The notes under the pieces: model-generated
Seen by the model: only the letters and a program-made list of their open reading frames with translations
What the model was told of the DNA's origin: nothing
Database searches by the model: none
From: Candidatus Nomurabacteria bacterium
GTDB lineage: Bacteria > Patescibacteriota > Minisyncoccia > Phycocordibacterales > CALRBL01
Reading direction: 5' to 3'
Assembly: GCA_963834935.1 (NCBI GenBank)
Contig: CAWIDS010000003.1
Span: 1-35,998 of the forward strand
Length of the DNA stretch: 35,998 bases
In this document: positions 4,972-26,480 of the stretch, one piece after another
Layout: the number at the start of each line of letters is the position of its first letter
Numbering within the stretch: the first letter of the stretch is position 1
Program-made: the position numbers and the translations under genes

Positions 4972-6324
4972 ATGGAGTCCATACAGAAAGGGCTGAAGAA
5001 GATAAAAGATAATCCCCAGCTCGTCTACACTATTTTCGTTGCCCTGCTCATCATCGCCGCTTTCATCTTCATGGCGAACATGTTCATCGGCATTGCAACC
5101 GACGCCGAAGAACGGCTGATCAATGTCCGCATCGGCTCGATACAGGATTCATTCGTATCCTTTGCGGGGGATTATCTTGATCAGCCAGACTACTTGGATC
5201 AGAAAATAAAAGACATAGTCAATGACAATCAGACGATCGAGGATTTCCGTGTGATCGAGAAATCAGAGAGTGCGACCTCTTCATCGCCATACGTCACTAT
5301 CGCCTCATCAGGCCAGAATGTGATTGCCACTTCAAGCGACGAGGATCAATTCCTCTATTCGCTTGCCGTCAGCCAGCCGGCTAATTCGCTTACTATCACA
5401 GATGAATCGAACGGTCAGAGGATTTTCCGAACCACACGCGCTATCACCGATACTTCGGGAAATGTCACCGCCGTAGTGGTCTCGACGCAGACGCTTTCCG
5501 AAGCTGACATGCAGATCGAGAACAATATCCAACGCAGCATCATCATTTTGATCGCCGTGCTCATCGTCATCATGCTTCTCTTCCTCCGCCATTCGCGCAT
5601 CATCGATTACATGTCCCTCTACAAGAAGCTCAAGGAAGTCGATCAGCTCAAGGACGATTTCCTCTCGATGGCCTCGCATGAGCTTCGCACGCCGCTTACG
5701 GTCATCCGTGGCTATTCGGAATTCATCCGCGAAGCGCCCGAGCTTTCGCCGAAGACGCTCGACTTCGCACAGAAGATCGACATGTCGGCAAAGGATCTTG
5801 ATTCGCTGGTAGCCGACATGCTTGATGTTTCGCGCATCGAGCAAGGAAGGATGACTTTCAAGTTGGAAATCGACAATCCGAAAGCGATCGTAGATGAGGT
5901 GTCGGCTTCCCTTAGAGTCACAGTAGAGGCAAAAGGCTTGAAGTTGACAACTACAGACGAAACAAAACCTGAGCAAAAGATCTCAGCAGACAAAGTTCGC
6001 CTTAAGCAGATCCTGGTTAATGTCATTGGCAATTCAGTCAAATATACCCTCAAGGGAGAAGTATCAGTTCATCAGTATATCGAGAAAGGCAGGCTCTTCA
6101 TCCGCGTCGACGACACAGGTATCGGCATGAGCGCCGAAGACCAGAAGAACCTTTTCCAGAAATTTTACCGTATCAGGAATAAGGACACCGAAAGCATCAT
6201 GGGCACCGGCCTCGGCCTTTGGATCACGAAGTCGATGGTGGAACAGATGAATGGTTCCCTTACTGTCGAATCGATACAAGGCGTCGGCTCGCATTTCCTG
6301 ATCTCCTTTCCGCTGGTGACCTAA
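4972..6324 (+). CDS. Sensor histidine kinase (two TM helices, extracytoplasmic sensor, HisKA + HATPase_c)
   Basis: H-box SMASHELRTPL, N-box NVIGNSVKYT, G1 DDTGIG, G2 GTGLGL. Confidence 0.95.
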   Translation: MESIQKGLKKIKDNPQLVYTIFVALLIIAAFIFMANMFIGIATDAEERLINVRIGSIQDSFVSFAGDYLDQPDYLDQKIKDIVNDNQTIEDFRVIEKSESATSSSPYVTIASSGQNVIATSSDEDQFLYSLAVSQPANSLTITDESNGQRIFRTTRAITDTSGNVTAVVVSTQTLSEADMQIENNIQRSIIILIAVLIVIMLLFLRHSRIIDYMSLYKKLKEVDQLKDDFLSMASHELRTPLTVIRGYSEFIREAPELSPKTLDFAQKIDMSAKDLDSLVADMLDVSRIEQGRMTFKLEIDNPKAIVDEVSASLRVTVEAKGLKLTTTDETKPEQKISADKVRLKQILVNVIGNSVKYTLKGEVSVHQYIEKGRLFIRVDDTGIGMSAEDQKNLFQKFYRIRNKDTESIMGTGLGLWITKSMVEQMNGSLTVESIQGVGSHFLISFPLVT

Positions 6325-6351: not shown

Positions 6352-6636
6352 ATGTCAAACGTCGTCTTCGACGAAGAGAGGGTGTTACGGCTGAATAATA
6401 TTGAAGTGAAAAAAAAGATACCTACTCTTCCGCGTTTTGTCATCTCTCTTCATTTGGCGAAAAATGAACTTCAAGCAAATATAGTTTTAATTGTTGTTAC
6501 TTTGATTTGTTTGGGGACAGCCCTTTTTCTCATCATAGCTCCCCATCAACAAAATACTATGATTACCCTCCCTGACGGAACAAAAATAACCCCAGCTGAA
6601 TACTTCCAAGGGGTAAGAGATAAAATATACCAATAG
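6352..6636 (+). CDS. Small single-pass membrane protein, unknown function
   Basis: 94 aa ORF with one hydrophobic helix (IVLIVVTLICLGTALFLII); TATAAT at 6337-6342 upstream; ends 4 nt before the pilin gene. Confidence 0.7.
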   Translation: MSNVVFDEERVLRLNNIEVKKKIPTLPRFVISLHLAKNELQANIVLIVVTLICLGTALFLIIAPHQQNTMITLPDGTKITPAEYFQGVRDKIYQ

Positions 6637-6640
6637 GCTT

Positions 6641-7183
6641 ATGAAAAAAATAAATAACAAAAAAAAGAACAATCACGGCTTCACTTTGATTGAACTTTTA
6701 GTCGTTATTTCAATCATTGCTCTCCTCTCTACTATTGTCCTAGCAAGCCTTCAAACAGCCCGGGCAAAATCTCGCGATGCAAAGCGAATCGAATTAGTGA
6801 AGGAATATGCAAATGCCCTGGAATTGTATAGAACTGATAATGGTACCTATCCCGTGGTCACAACTGGAACATATTACTGTTTGGGAGAAGCTCAAACTGG
6901 AACAAATAATGAATGTTACGGGGCTTCGTCTGACGGTTTGACTAGTCTAAATAATCTATTAAAAACATATATTCCAGGACCCCCCGCAAGTACTGATCCT
7001 TTAGTTGTTTCAGGAAATGATTTGCATGGAATTGTCTATACACTTTGTCCAACAAATGGGGGAGTAATTTGTCCTGCGGCCTATCAATTAAAATGGTACA
7101 TGGAAGTCAATCCAGATGGATGTGCGGGGGGAGTGAATAAACTTAATAGTCCTCCATTAATTATGTGTGTCTATCCTCAATAA
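6641..7183 (+). CDS. Type IV pilin / GspG-like pseudopilin
   Basis: Basic leader plus prepilin cleavage/methylation motif G|FTLIELLVVISII; ARAKSRDAKR...LELYRTDNGTYP; four Cys in the variable domain. Confidence 0.93.
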   Translation: MKKINNKKKNNHGFTLIELLVVISIIALLSTIVLASLQTARAKSRDAKRIELVKEYANALELYRTDNGTYPVVTTGTYYCLGEAQTGTNNECYGASSDGLTSLNNLLKTYIPGPPASTDPLVVSGNDLHGIVYTLCPTNGGVICPAAYQLKWYMEVNPDGCAGGVNKLNSPPLIMCVYPQ

Positions 7184-7214
7184 ATAAAAAAGGCTAGACA
7201 CACGGGTCTAGCCT
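7181..7214 (-). terminator. Intrinsic terminator between the convergent pilin and PEP-CTERM genes
   Basis: Perfect 9-bp stem AGGCTAGAC (7191-7199) / GTCTAGCCT (7206-7214) with a 6-nt loop; the A-run on its left is a U-tract on the minus strand. Confidence 0.8.
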
Positions 7215-7240: not shown

Positions 7241-7981
7241 CTACCGACGCGAGCGACGGTACCGGAGAAGCATGACGATTCCTCCGATAAATGTGACAGA
7301 GGTCGCCGGCTCAGGAACTGCTTGCGATTGAGATTGGATGGTCTGCCCCCCACCTGGCTTAAGGGTGACAAACACTCCTGTGAAGTCATTGTCTGAGGCT
7401 TGGAGAAAACCAGCAACAGGAATGAAGGTTGCCTGAATTTCCTTGATGGACGTTCCATGAAGGAGTACTGCATCCAAATCTTGTCCATCTGCGGGGCCAG
7501 CTTTCAGGTTTCCGATATTGAACGTATTGTCGTCAGTTGTGGTGACGACGACATTGTCTAACTCGATGGCGCTTCCCTGCCAATTTCCCTGGAGAATGAT
7601 AGCTGTGTCCTCAAATGAATCTGTCGGACGGTACACATCGGTGACAAAACTACCAATAGTGAGGGTAAAGGCACCACCACCGTTGTTGAGCCAGGTCAGC
7701 GGGTAGCTGGAATTCCAGATCCACTGGCCGACGTCCACATTCTCGGAATTCTGATAGACCGCTCCCAAGCCAAACTCAGGAGTAGTCTGATAACCCCCAG
7801 CGTCGATGGTACCCTGAAGACCTTCCTCAAAGCCTTGGTTAGGATCTTCGATCATCGCGACTTGAGAGCCGCTAAGCGAGGTCGCTGTTAAGCTGGCCTG
7901 CACTGTTGCACTGGAAATCATTGTGATCGCCAGTACACAAACTGCAAAAAAGAGGTTTTTCACGTCTCTGTTTCCTTTCAT
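7241..7981 (-). CDS. Secreted PEP-CTERM sorting-domain protein
   Basis: N-terminal signal peptide (..LAITMISSATVQA); C-terminus VPEPAT + hydrophobic helix + basic tail RYRRSRR. Confidence 0.9.
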   Translation of the reverse strand: MKGNRDVKNLFFAVCVLAITMISSATVQASLTATSLSGSQVAMIEDPNQGFEEGLQGTIDAGGYQTTPEFGLGAVYQNSENVDVGQWIWNSSYPLTWLNNGGGAFTLTIGSFVTDVYRPTDSFEDTAIILQGNWQGSAIELDNVVVTTTDDNTFNIGNLKAGPADGQDLDAVLLHGTSIKEIQATFIPVAGFLQASDNDFTGVFVTLKPGGGQTIQSQSQAVPEPATSVTFIGGIVMLLRYRRSRR

Positions 7982-8052: not shown

Positions 8053-8080
8053 ATAGTACCATAGATTGGGGAAAATGCAA
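8053..8080 (-). promoter_or_regulatory. Sigma70-type promoter of the PEP-CTERM gene
   Basis: TTGCAT (8080-8075), 16-nt spacer, TACTAT (8058-8053) preceded by TG-n (extended -10). Confidence 0.5.
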
Positions 8081-8112
8081 GGGCTTATATGATAACTGTC
8101 TCCGTCGCTTCT

Positions 8113-8637
8113 TTAGACCAAAGAAGCCTTTAGTGATATTGCTTTTTTGATAATATAATCACCAATTTCTCCCCAATCAAAATATTCTTTATAGGTATCT
8201 GGGTCAATTAATTTTATTTCTGTAATCCCCTTTTCAGTTATACCATCACCACCATCAATAGAAAATTCTCCATATGGCCTCACCTTACAGGCAAATCTCA
8301 ATTGATATATTATTTTTCCATTTTCAGTATTAGTTAATTTTTGATAACCAACAGGTATAAATGATACTACCTCCATATTTGATTCTTCTTTTATCTCTCT
8401 AACAAGAGTTTGCTCATAAATTTCTCCCTTTTCTATACTTCCCCCAATTAGTCCCCAGCTTTTTTTAAGTCCTCCATAACCTATAACCATTTTATCCCCA
8501 TAAAAACAGACTCCATAGGCCTGTTTGATTCTATCTTTCGGTAATTCATCAAAATCAACAAAATCAAAATATTCTAACAGGTAAGTCACTCCTGATTCTC
8601 CAAGATAAGTATTCGTGAGCAGGGGTTTGGAATCCAT
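8113..8637 (-). CDS. NUDIX hydrolase
   Basis: Nudix box GGSIEKGEIYEQTLVREIKEESNM (GX5EX7REUXEE); visibly AT-rich. Confidence 0.9.
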   Translation of the reverse strand: MDSKPLLTNTYLGESGVTYLLEYFDFVDFDELPKDRIKQAYGVCFYGDKMVIGYGGLKKSWGLIGGSIEKGEIYEQTLVREIKEESNMEVVSFIPVGYQKLTNTENGKIIYQLRFACKVRPYGEFSIDGGDGITEKGITEIKLIDPDTYKEYFDWGEIGDYIIKKAISLKASLV

Positions 8638-8647
8638 AGTTTCTTAA

Positions 8648-9775
8648 TTATCCCCTCCCCATCAAAGCCAACACCAGCAACGATACAAGGATGAATACTC
8701 CTGCAAAGATGTATATCGCTTTGCCGGAAAGCAGGCTTGGGCGGGTTGATTGGGCAGGTGCAGGCTGGTTGGAAACGCTGTCGATGGTTGCGGCTTCGGC
8801 GCTCTTGGTGAAGTCGAGGGCGCTGCTTCGGGCCACTATCTTTCCGGAATTGTTCACCTCGGTTGCATAAGCGACGTGCTGGCCGTTATCAAGCTCTTTG
8901 TCGAAGGTATAGGTCCAGACTCCTGATGAATCCGCTTTGACGCTGACGATGATCGGCGTGCTATAGAGATAGATGGTTACTATGGCATTCGGCAATGCGC
9001 GTCCCGACATCTGGATGACATTGCCATTCTGATTCTTCTGGAGTGAGACTTTCGAGATGCTAAAAGCTGGGTTTACGGGGACGGTGGAGGTCTTTGCGTC
9101 TTCCTGCGAAGCGAATGGCAGGTTGGTGAGAGGATCGATGCCGGCAAGGACCTTCTGGCCGTCTGTAAGCTGGGTAGTCGTGCCTGTCATCGGCGTGGTC
9201 ACTGCCTTGTTCGGATTCGTGTGATAAATATAGAGCTCATCATAGTCAGAAAGGCCGTCCTTGTCCGAATCCACAAAAAGGAGATTGGCATTAAGGCTTG
9301 AGAGGGTGCTTGAAGCGGCGCTCATCTGGGTATCGAGGTCTGAAAGGACGGCAGTGATATCACTCGAGTGCTCGGTAAGGTTGATACTGACTGATGTTGC
9401 TTGCGGGGCCAAGACGCTCTGGATCTTTTTCAGATCGGCGTTGATCTTCAATCCAAGCGCTGTAGTGACCTGCGGAGTGATCGGTCCCTGGCTGAAGCCG
9501 GTGTCGACATCATTGAGAAGCGTCTGCCTCGAGGCGGTGATCAGCTTGTTGAGCGCTACTGCCGAGTTTATAGGGTCGGGTGCATTCATACTGATGCTTC
9601 TGATAGCGTCTGAGATGCTCGACTCGATGAAGCCGATGACCTGGTTCTTGGCGGAATCAATATCATTCCTGTTTTGGACGATAGGACCTGCAAGAATACT
9701 CAAGTCTGCCTGGGTATCCGCATAAGCTGTGCTAAAAGAGAAAAGAAGACAAAGCAGGATTAATGTATTTTTCAT
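8648..9775 (-). CDS. Secreted, C-terminally anchored surface protein with a TSP3-like Ca-binding motif and a bacterial Ig-like domain
   Basis: Signal peptide (..STAYA); DSDKDGLSDYDE..YHTNP motif; GRALPNAIVTIY...ADSSGVWTY..L..GQH Ig-like strand pattern; C-terminal TM helix. Confidence 0.8.
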   Translation of the reverse strand: MKNTLILLCLLFSFSTAYADTQADLSILAGPIVQNRNDIDSAKNQVIGFIESSISDAIRSISMNAPDPINSAVALNKLITASRQTLLNDVDTGFSQGPITPQVTTALGLKINADLKKIQSVLAPQATSVSINLTEHSSDITAVLSDLDTQMSAASSTLSSLNANLLFVDSDKDGLSDYDELYIYHTNPNKAVTTPMTGTTTQLTDGQKVLAGIDPLTNLPFASQEDAKTSTVPVNPAFSISKVSLQKNQNGNVIQMSGRALPNAIVTIYLYSTPIIVSVKADSSGVWTYTFDKELDNGQHVAYATEVNNSGKIVARSSALDFTKSAEAATIDSVSNQPAPAQSTRPSLLSGKAIYIFAGVFILVSLLVLALMGRG

Positions 9776-25163: not shown

Positions 25164-26480
25164 TTACTGCTGCTTAACAACATTTATCCCTATCTTATCA
25201 GGGTCATTGGGGAAATTGGTCATCCAGACAGGATGCAAAGTGGCGTCAGCAGAGATGATTTCCGGATACATGCTTAATATTTCCTGAAGCTGGGATTTCG
25301 ATTTTCCTGCCAAGGCTTTTTGGAGTGCTGCTTTATCAAATGAATTACCGGTCGTTAGTGTTCCTTTCAGCTCTATCAGAAGCGGCTGGCTGTTCACGAA
25401 GCCTGGCGTAGTCGAACTTGCGCTATCTGAGAGAATGGAAAGATCAAGCGACCCGAGATTGTCGAATTGGTAGGTCTTGGAAAGCTGAGAGGAAATGAGA
25501 TCGGTAATCTCACTATTGTCGAATACCATACCGACCGCAATAGCCTTTCCTTCAAGTGATGAAGTGCCGGACGCTCCTGATTGGACATCAGATGTGTAGT
25601 TGACCTTGATGCCTTCCTTGAAAAATACGTAAGACGGAGGTACTTCCGACAAGAATTCCTGCTGTATGCCTGAAGCAAGAGAACTTTGAAGTTCTAACTG
25701 CGCCTTTTGGAGGTCCGCATCGCTCACGCTCGCTGCCAAGCCTGAGAATCCGCCAGTTGTCGGAGTGACAGAGCGCGCATAGAAGCCTTTGTATTTCGGA
25801 GTGCCTTGAAAACCAGGGATAGTGAAGTCCTGGTCAGCCAGGTTGTAATTCGCACCAGGCTGATCAGCTGTAATATCTGCATTGACGCTTCCAGGAGACG
25901 GAGGCACGGTCACGGTCTTGTCGAGTCGGAAAATCAATCCTCCGCTCGTTTGAAAACGGGTATTAGCGATAAGAATCTGCGATGTTGGTCCATAATTATT
26001 GTATATAGCAATAGTTCCGGTAGCTTTTTTCTGGACATTTGCAGGCGTACCGTTGCTTGGAAGCGGAATGCTTCCATCCTTCTCGACTGTCATCAGCTTG
26101 TATTGCAAGGTTCCAGTCGCCCACGCAGTGTCGGGCGTCGAACTTGCTATGATATCGACAGGAATCTGCTCTACTTTCAAAGTAATATCAACTTCCGCCT
26201 TCTTGAAAAAGAAGAGAAGCGATCCGAGAAGCGCCATGATGCAAATGAATGCGATTGTCCACATTGCGCGGCGTGAGGAAGAAGTTTTCGGAGGGATTGG
26301 AGGCAGAGGTTTTTTTGCATTGGTTTCGGGCGGAACGCGCTTTTTTGCACGAAATTCCGCAGTCTCCACGAGCAATTCGTCGATCTTGTTTTCTTTTTTC
26401 TCGCGGAGAGGAATATTCCGGATGGTGCGCCGTTTGGAGTCGTCAGCGGGGATAATATCTTGGAAAGATTTATTTGTCAT
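25164..26480 (-). CDS. Single-pass membrane protein with an extracellular baseplate-J/gp47-like domain
   Basis: Charged N-terminal tail, TM helix (WTIAFICIMALLGSLLFFF), then ATGTIAIYN..LIANTRF..GLIFRL..ITADQPGANYN pattern. Confidence 0.6.
   Translation of the reverse strand: MTNKSFQDIIPADDSKRRTIRNIPLREKKENKIDELLVETAEFRAKKRVPPETNAKKPLPPIPPKTSSSRRAMWTIAFICIMALLGSLLFFFKKAEVDITLKVEQIPVDIIASSTPDTAWATGTLQYKLMTVEKDGSIPLPSNGTPANVQKKATGTIAIYNNYGPTSQILIANTRFQTSGGLIFRLDKTVTVPPSPGSVNADITADQPGANYNLADQDFTIPGFQGTPKYKGFYARSVTPTTGGFSGLAASVSDADLQKAQLELQSSLASGIQQEFLSEVPPSYVFFKEGIKVNYTSDVQSGASGTSSLEGKAIAVGMVFDNSEITDLISSQLSKTYQFDNLGSLDLSILSDSASSTTPGFVNSQPLLIELKGTLTTGNSFDKAALQKALAGKSKSQLQEILSMYPEIISADATLHPVWMTNFPNDPDKIGINVVKQQ

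Follow-up and report, generated by a model that had tools for sequence, protein, structure and literature searches.

A PEP-CTERM-tailed surface protein inherited in a pilin-linked gene block of Patescibacteria, in a genome without a detectable exosortase

The PEP-CTERM/exosortase system (EpsH, XrtA/XrtB) was originally defined by the joint presence of an outer membrane, exopolysaccharide (EPS) genes, and EpsH, and true systems comprise a median of 8 PEP-CTERM proteins per genome (Haft et al. 2006, PMC1569441). The same study already noted single tails, and a genome with tails but without EpsH, as possible remnants (PMC1569441). Here we describe a gene for a PEP-CTERM-tailed secreted protein in 35,998 nucleotides of a Candidatus Nomurabacteria bacterium (assembly GCA_963834935.1, contig CAWIDS010000003.1, positions 1 to 35,998; hereafter the window), which are the first 36 kb of a 201-kb contig of a genome that we label G000. 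It is a genuine, lineage-inherited surface-protein gene of a sublineage of the candidate phyla radiation (CPR), so that a tail defined by its co-occurrence with exosortase, outer membrane, and EPS genes is inherited and strictly conserved here without the first two of these. New here are the whole-genome negative for the enzyme, the cross-tabulation of tails and enzymes across the phylum, and the orthologous synteny with a conserved promoter; our literature search found no paper pairing exosortase with Patescibacteria and none discussing PEP-CTERM in that phylum, and of the two papers that contain both PEP-CTERM and Patescibacteria, one has the former in its list of references only.

The locus resembles the described system in that a signal peptide, a passenger with little known homology, and a tail of VPEP, short helix, and Arg-rich end are encoded by a gene that stands alone, has a promoter of its own, and follows a sizeable intergenic region. 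It differs in that G000 lacks exosortase and Omp85, has one tail instead of the median eight with scores at the cutoff, and belongs to a sortase-bearing, CPR-type monoderm cell. The gene and its signals are laid out as follows:

7241..7981, minus strand: coding sequence of a 246-aa PEP-CTERM-tailed secreted protein, stop codon at 7241-7243 (from the list of open reading frames [ORFs], homologs of the same architecture, and native-like composition)
7895..7981, minus strand: predicted Sec-type signal peptide, residues 1-29, cut between VQA and S (K/R n-region, hydrophobic core, AxA)
7361..7894, minus strand: passenger domain, residues 30-207, a predicted beta-sandwich, fast-evolving and possibly lectin-like (from AlphaFold2, Foldseek, and NF041928)
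7244..7321, minus strand: PEP-CTERM-type tail, residues 221-246, with AVPEP, the 14-residue hydrophobic span ATSVTFIGGIVMLL, and RYRRSRR (from TIGR02595 and the alignment)
8053..8081, minus strand: putative sigma-70-type promoter with -35 CTTGCAT (8081-8075), extended -10 TG (8061-8060), and TACTAT (8058-8053) (from the alignment of four leaders)
7191..7214, minus strand: predicted intrinsic terminator directly after the stop codon, with a 9-bp stem followed by TTTTTATTTA (from a terminator scan and the sequence)

A sequence-only reading of this DNA had seen a textbook PEP-CTERM tail on a secreted protein, and this description stands: the ORF is exact, VPEP, hydrophobic span, and RYRRSRR are all present, and the tails of homologs align with them. 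The tail, AVPEPATSVTFIGGIVMLLRYRRSRR, is the extreme C-terminus of the 246-aa protein, shows the three parts by which a PEP-CTERM domain is recognised, and is joined to the passenger domain by a Gly/Gln/Ser linker. Its profile hidden Markov model (HMM) scores are borderline, with TIGR02595 (cutoff 16 bits) giving 15.3 bits for the whole protein and 17.9 bits for the tail at 7244-7318 in a six-frame genome search, and PF07589 giving 15.1 bits at a cutoff of 20.7. All 6 full-length homologs carry PEP-CTERM tails at the same aligned position, which argues that the tail is not a chance match. Across the 7 full-length sequences, 8 of the 201 ungapped columns are invariant, and P223-E224-P225 is the sole run among them (chance under random placement 0.008, or 0.012 for the 5 CPR-context sequences alone); these 5 share a mean of 25% identity upstream of the tail and an invariant PEP. 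With its intact ORF and a PEP invariant in the full-length homologs, the tail is not the isolated degenerate remnant that the sequence-only reading had allowed for. One syntenic ortholog on a contig of ERZ1426851 (P0011) ends in an unrelated 60-residue sequence without a PEP tail, which may reflect a frameshift or true tail loss.

At the other end of the protein, the signal peptide (MKGNRDVKNLFFAVCVLAITMISSATVQA, followed by S) is of the Sec type as read from the sequence by eye without a signal-peptide predictor; its region forms a helix at residues 5-23 in the AlphaFold2 model, and K8 is invariant across the family. Four orthologous leaders share a promoter of -35 CTTGCAT and extended -10 TGnTAnnAT, with alignment columns C32, T33, T34, G35, and T38 as well as T52, G53, T55, A56, A59, and T60 invariant, and a generic consensus scan did not flag this element at 8053-8081. 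The gene thus appears to be transcribed from its own conserved promoter and to end at its own terminator. Measured against the genome, its codon score lies at the 17th percentile, its GC content at third codon positions (GC3) at the 39th, and its overall GC content at the 87th.

The G000 assembly consists of 3 contigs with 670 kb in total (96.96% complete, 0.04% contamination), and genome sizes range from 0.4 to 1.1 Mb among its 60 nearest relatives and from 0.5 to 2.1 Mb among 400 phylum-wide genomes. Omp85/BamA gave no match at E ≤ 1 in G000, with 7 control genomes over the cutoff, and genes for lipopolysaccharide and Lpt were not searched; a sortase (PF04203, 70 bits) and type IV pilins are present. 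In view of its 670 kb at 97% completeness, its small-genome relatives, the lack of Omp85, and the sortase, G000 is a CPR-type genome with a monoderm-type envelope, just as had been supposed from the window alone.

No exosortase had been seen in the window, and this absence extends to the whole 670-kb genome. PF09721 gave no match at E ≤ 1 and TIGR04178 none at E ≤ 10, while two custom HMMs built from exosortase-family proteins of this phylum and of one Verrucomicrobiae genome, run with the HMMER filters off on ORFs of at least 50 aa, reached at best E 0.011 and 12 bits on a 117-aa ORF. The wider search that the sequence-only reading had proposed, for exosortases, archaeosortases, and further tails, therefore returned no enzyme and, by regular expression scan and HMM, exactly one PEP-CTERM tail. 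In a scan of 10 polytopic membrane proteins of G000, three proved to be intramembrane proteases, namely a prepilin peptidase, an M50 protease, and a protease of the PrsW family (C3:154822-155526, 96.6 bits), and neither a rhomboid nor a CPBP protein (PF02517) was found among these 10.

The same separation of tail and enzyme is seen across the phylum. Over 401 genomes, PEP-CTERM tails exceed the cutoff at E ≤ 0.01 in 14 (compared with 0 of 14 controls) and exosortase-family genes exceed theirs in 10, and no genome has both over cutoff; the sole genome on both lists, G288, has an exosortase match of 17 bits, which is under the cutoff. Most of the 14 tail-bearing genomes are 96-100% complete, and at least seven tail genes are solitary and surrounded by CPR core genes. 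Tails without the enzyme thus recur in the phylum, and the cross-tabulation provides a testable rule, namely that tails and exosortase-family genes do not co-occur in it. The passenger domains of the other tail proteins are mutually unrelated (choice-of-anchor C, HAF repeats, ScyE-like), and no recurrent partner gene was found beside PEP-CTERM genes in other CPR genomes, where the neighbours encode Met-aminopeptidase, CCA-adding enzyme, HrcA, histidine phosphatase, and Trp repressor.

As for the enzymes themselves, the three strongest exosortase matches of the phylum sit on contigs shorter than 12 kb and may be bin contamination; they include the only match in a genome of the same order as G000 (G383), which was discounted since it sits on a 1,449-bp contig. 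A type of approximately 310 aa belonging to the exosortase/archaeosortase family is encoded on contigs that measure 300-766 kb and include a closed 766-kb genome; it keeps the ACSG, NILR, and FHTY (Cys/Arg/His) motifs, passes TIGR04178 with 36-57 bits, and fits no named subtype. Its loci are L009 (G092:C1:631975-632898), L008, L011, L012, and L010, together with L040 (G133:C17). Genomes with such CPR-type exosortases have best tail matches that are below cutoff or non-canonical (VPEAS, ETGPS); in G133, the enzyme gene lies directly behind a 526-aa ORF (in a 1,034-aa open frame) that ends in a VPEAS tail. The sequence-only reading had taken PEP-CTERM/exosortase sorting as a trait of diderm bacteria, and this was too strong, given enzymes with intact motifs in some genomes of the phylum, though it does hold that they are absent from G000 and from the genomes with canonical tails. 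Archaeosortase A with its PGF-CTERM substrates in archaea is an exosortase-family enzyme of monoderm cells. Together with the ~310-aa enzymes of this phylum, it suggests that the family and its tripartite C-terminal signals can function in single-membrane cells, even though these ~310-aa enzymes reside in genomes other than those with canonical PEP tails and none is found in G000.

Because G000 encodes no exosortase or archaeosortase, the tail is most likely a stop-transfer anchor that is not cleaved by the classical pathway. The reading that we favour, and to which we give about an even chance, is that of a Sec-exported, fast-evolving, and possibly glycan-binding surface protein that is held on the single membrane by its tail, is part of a pilin-linked module, and is not classically processed. 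The protein would be exported by Sec and its signal peptide cut between VQA and S, a rapidly diverging lectin-like beta-sandwich would be displayed outside the single cell membrane, and the uncleaved tail would cross the membrane with its short helix, leaving VPEP at the outer face and RYRRSRR on the cytoplasmic side. Unprocessed LPXTG precursors stay membrane-bound in sortase mutants, and such a membrane-held precursor can serve as a model for the anchor. The LPXTG/sortase system is similar in its three-part signal, and G000 has a sortase of its own along with an IPATG substrate, but the motif here is PEP instead of LPXTG and no LPXTG-like pentapeptide is conserved among orthologs. Since the residues after PEP vary (EPATS in G000; EPSVF, EPGRV, EPSVM, and EPTRA in orthologs), a sortase site is not conserved, and the G000 sortase was rejected as a reader of the tail. 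That sortase is encoded outside the window (C1:101269-103671) next to a 557-aa secreted protein with repeats of approximately 70 residues (motif SWNGTDGLSG), which ends in IPATG, a transmembrane helix, and basic residues and is probably its native substrate.

Several points weigh against a simple anchor. P-E-P is invariant even though the passenger is only ~25% identical, and a plain anchor needs no P-E-P. Family tails also keep a hydrophobic span of 13-17 residues plus 3-5 basic residues, shorter than the 21-24 residues spanned by the plain C-terminal anchors of neighbouring Ig-like proteins; a short span with a basic end is the shape of a cleaved sorting signal and not of a generic anchor, which is the main evidence against this simplest reading. 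In addition, approximately 3% of the genome is unassembled, the enzyme test covers G000 alone while the orthologs come from short contigs, and the proposed ligand binding would rest on a fold match with a TM-score below 0.5.

The invariant PEP in five CPR-context members and the conserved tripartite architecture with its short span would fit a working sorting signal, read by an enzyme that is unrelated to exosortases or unrecognisably diverged from them, with the protein then being released or attached to a wall polymer or lipid. We regard this as possible but rather unlikely. The recurrence of tails in 14 of 401 genomes in CPR core contexts, none with an exosortase over cutoff, argues for it, and there is a precedent in MYXO-CTERM, a tripartite signal that is reported to be processed by the exosortase-unrelated myxosortase, a CPBP-family intramembrane protease; that motif has an invariant Cys, unlike the window tail, which contains no Cys. 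A candidate reader might be another intramembrane protease such as the PrsW-family protein of G000, a family that we take to be part of the CPBP superfamily, though linking it to the tail is speculation from this presumed membership. No candidate enzyme is linked to the gene, other CPR tail genes adjoin unrelated housekeeping genes, and the tail-less syntenic ortholog P0011 also speaks against a dedicated reader, as does the number of substrates, which is 1-3 per genome compared with a median of 8 in true systems (PMC1569441). The broader claim would be that some single-membrane Patescibacteria without exosortase keep PEP-CTERM under selection because a different enzyme reads it, i.e., a new C-terminal sorting route, and we hold this to be unlikely, slightly more so than an unrecognised reader as such. 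If true, this route would bring rapidly evolving, lectin-like proteins whose genes adjoin pilin genes to the cell surface, and these proteins may there make contact with host cells. Either an exosortase-independent role of the tail or an unknown reader would change how annotations of a "PEP-CTERM sorting domain" in CPR genomes are to be read.

It is also conceivable that a classical exosortase does act on the tail, being either encoded in the ~3% of the genome that is not assembled or contributed by a partner or host cell. G000 is in 3 contigs and not fully complete, a minority of genomes in the phylum do encode exosortase-family enzymes, and the only relatives of the protein outside CPR are found in a Verrucomicrobiae genome with a 141-bit exosortase. 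However, the 14 genomes of the phylum that carry tails all lack an exosortase match over cutoff in spite of their mostly near-complete state, and the CPR-type exosortases occur in genomes with sub-cutoff or non-canonical tails. Exosortases are integral inner-membrane enzymes, which makes processing by the host topologically implausible, since an enzyme in the host inner membrane would have no access to a protein that is anchored in a different cell. Taken together, we consider a classical exosortase very improbable.

Returning to the anchored surface protein that we favour, its setting in the genome is informative. The window lies at the start of a contig that also encodes TrpRS, TyrRS, DnaK, GrpE, and RpoA, and the gene is embedded in a block of surface-protein genes:

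4972..6324, plus strand: sensor histidine kinase at the edge of the block (HisKA, HATPase_c; 66-67% identical to kinase fragments at the same position in L082)
6352..6636, plus strand: small 94-aa membrane protein upstream of the pilin (orthologs 29-34% identical in L080 and L081)
6641..7183, plus strand: type IV pilin-like gene (N_methyl, PF07963, 37.6 bits), convergent with the PEP-CTERM gene (orthologs 49-54% identical and adjacent in L080, L081, and L082)
8113..8637, minus strand: NUDIX hydrolase (PF00293) between the two surface-protein genes, in G000 only (absent from this position in L080, L081, and L082)
8648..9775, minus strand: Ig-like/TSP3 surface protein with a plain 21-residue C-terminal transmembrane anchor (Pfam TSP3_bac, Big_13; orthologs 36-46% identical)

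The contigs L080, L081, and L082 are independent assemblies from other samples and represent related CPR organisms, which compare with G000 as follows:

L080 (Logan run, 11.6-kb contig, GC 34%): Ig-like protein 36%, family gene 26%, convergent pilin 50%, small protein 34% identical
L081 (metagenome contig): Ig-like protein 38%, family gene 24%, pilin 49%, small protein 29% identical
L082 (metagenome contig): TyrRS 58%, kinase 66%, pilin 54%, family gene 28%, Ig-like protein 46% identical

In all three, the gene for the Ig-like protein lies directly upstream of the family gene, the gene order of L082 is that of the window, and L080 additionally encodes LexA (69%) and IleRS (47% identical to G000). 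The fifth member, P0011, has an N_methyl pilin and a small gene behind the family gene. The block neighbours are 29-67% identical to their G000 counterparts and the family gene itself 24-28%. The presence of the same block in three independent assemblies rules out a chimeric join, a doubt that the sequence-only reading had raised, and shows that the gene is fixed in a surface-gene block of a CPR sublineage. It also leaves an assembly or binning artefact, i.e., a gene of another organism, with a next to negligible probability: the gene has a GC content of 0.51, above the 0.39 of the pilin and the 0.33 of the NUDIX gene, but it is found among CPR core genes, 7 kb from the start of a 201-kb contig, the Ig-like/family gene/pilin adjacency recurs in other samples, and the tetranucleotide profile of the window has a correlation of 0.956 with that of the remaining genome, the best compositional fit of all 36-kb chunks.

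Judging from its type IV pilin and Ig-like surface-protein neighbours, the protein is probably part of a cell-contact or adhesion module. Given its place in a conserved pilin/surface-protein block and its very fast evolution, it is a concrete candidate for a factor in cell contact, in organisms for which few of the molecules used in host attachment are known.

Conservation of the block also bears on the idea that the gene is a decaying or neutral passenger from a diderm donor and its tail a relic without function, which we think improbable, if marginally less so than a hidden exosortase. A single tail without the enzyme is the case described as a possible remnant (PMC1569441), the tail has the lowest TIGR02595 score (17.9 bits) among the CPR tails found, and the family is very rare, with homologs missing from all 60 relatives and all 400 phylum genomes searched. 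Yet the ORF is intact and has a conserved promoter and a terminator, the locus is kept in four CPR organisms, the PEP is invariant despite saturating divergence, and the codon usage is native-like. The sequence-only reading had suggested a host-like protein borrowed from a donor, which is at odds with family members that occupy a fixed position, syntenic in at least four CPR organisms, and have diverged to ~25% identity.

Recent horizontal transfer was likewise rejected on the basis of native-like tetranucleotide, codon, and GC3 values and the synteny in other CPR organisms. At other CPR tail loci, a GC excess of 5-14 points over the surroundings was considered as a transfer signal and rejected because the orthologs on L080 and L081, as well as the member on L004, show the same; since these include vertically placed orthologs, the excess is a trait of the gene class and no proof of import. 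The GC3 of family genes exceeds that of their neighbours by 5-29 points (0.41 vs. 0.20-0.35 at L080:943-1647, 0.56 vs. 0.27-0.36 at L081:1362-2099, and 0.46 vs. ~0.30 at L004:2296-2955), an offset that recent transfer cannot explain, at least on L080 and L081, where the orthologs are syntenic. The NUDIX gene, with a GC3 of 0.217 next to 0.53-0.63 in its two neighbours, looks like a lineage-specific insertion since it is missing at this position in the three syntenic relatives; in genomes of the same genus, the gene order around its ortholog is not conserved, so that no empty-site comparison was possible.

The protein family is small and highly diverged. A word-index search of 5.8 billion clusters returned the window protein itself only, whereas HMMER, run exhaustively against 1.84 billion representatives, recovered eight remote relatives with 24-41% identity, and homology to them persists after removal of signal peptide and tail. 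All members are singletons or near-singletons, and the family amounts to approximately ten sequences in 15 billion, most of the known ones from CPR contexts; the family profile found no member in the 60 relatives or the 400 phylum genomes. The sequence-only reading had called the fold unrecognised, and this is correct insofar as the choice-of-anchor W family (NF041928) stays below its cutoff of 45 with 22.7 bits (E 6e-5) for the window protein. It needs qualification because there is this weak match, covering model positions 2-163 of 196 and shared by 3 of 8 family members (best E 1.2e-8), as well as a weak likeness to concanavalin A (ConA)-like folds. The family may thus be at most a remote sister group of choice-of-anchor W, and not a member. 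An AlphaFold2 model computed from an alignment of only 8 sequences is a beta-sandwich with a mean pLDDT (per-residue model confidence) of 76.6 and 80-92 in the core. ConA-like lectin/glucanase folds are the best structural matches to the passenger model, yet with TM-scores below 0.5: the best Foldseek matches in the PDB are ConA-type legume lectins (e.g., 7LJG and 2GDF) at TM-scores of 0.42-0.47, E ~1e-3, and probability 1.00 for the top matches, covering ~210 residues with root-mean-square deviations of 5-6 Å and 8-13% identity.

Outside CPR, the closest subfamily (P0010, P0007, and P0002) is located on the complete chromosome (4.07 Mb) of an uncultured Verrucomicrobiae metagenome-assembled genome (OY969777.1), which was also the sole match to a back-translated pattern from a tighter alignment and is the only one of 301 genomes of its phylum with full-length members. 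The tandem copies are accompanied by TrbI, ParB, DUF932, and a DDE transposase, in a region (L003/L015, OY969777.1:181085-201888) that resembles an integrative and conjugative element (ICE) or other conjugative element in its gene content. The transposase appears to split the second copy, whose tail fragment lies beyond the insertion. The expectation that the donor lineage could reveal the host was disappointed: the family tree is a star in which only the Verrucomicrobiae clade is supported (99/98), and inference of a donor or host from it failed. With a star tree, and with the only non-CPR copies on one ICE-like element, neither a donor nor a host can be named.

A few further observations concern tails and pilins elsewhere. 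G200, which has no PF09721 match, encodes two paralogs with VVPEPS tails that are 49% identical (ORFs of 663 aa and 511 aa; L038 G200:C3 and L045 G200:C14), one of them among CPR core genes. At L073:8600-10090 (G447:C8, same class as G000), an unrelated PEP-CTERM protein adjoins a divergent N_methyl pilin gene, a second pilin association that may be chance. In G000 itself, the pair of a small membrane protein of approximately 91-94 aa and a type IV pilin occurs three times (window 6352-7183, C1:988-1819, and C1:2603-3435), with the window copy alone linked to a PEP-CTERM gene. Elsewhere in the window, positions 25164-26480 encode a 438-aa protein with a weak Baseplate_J-like match (24 bits) beside ribosomal-protein and rpoA genes.

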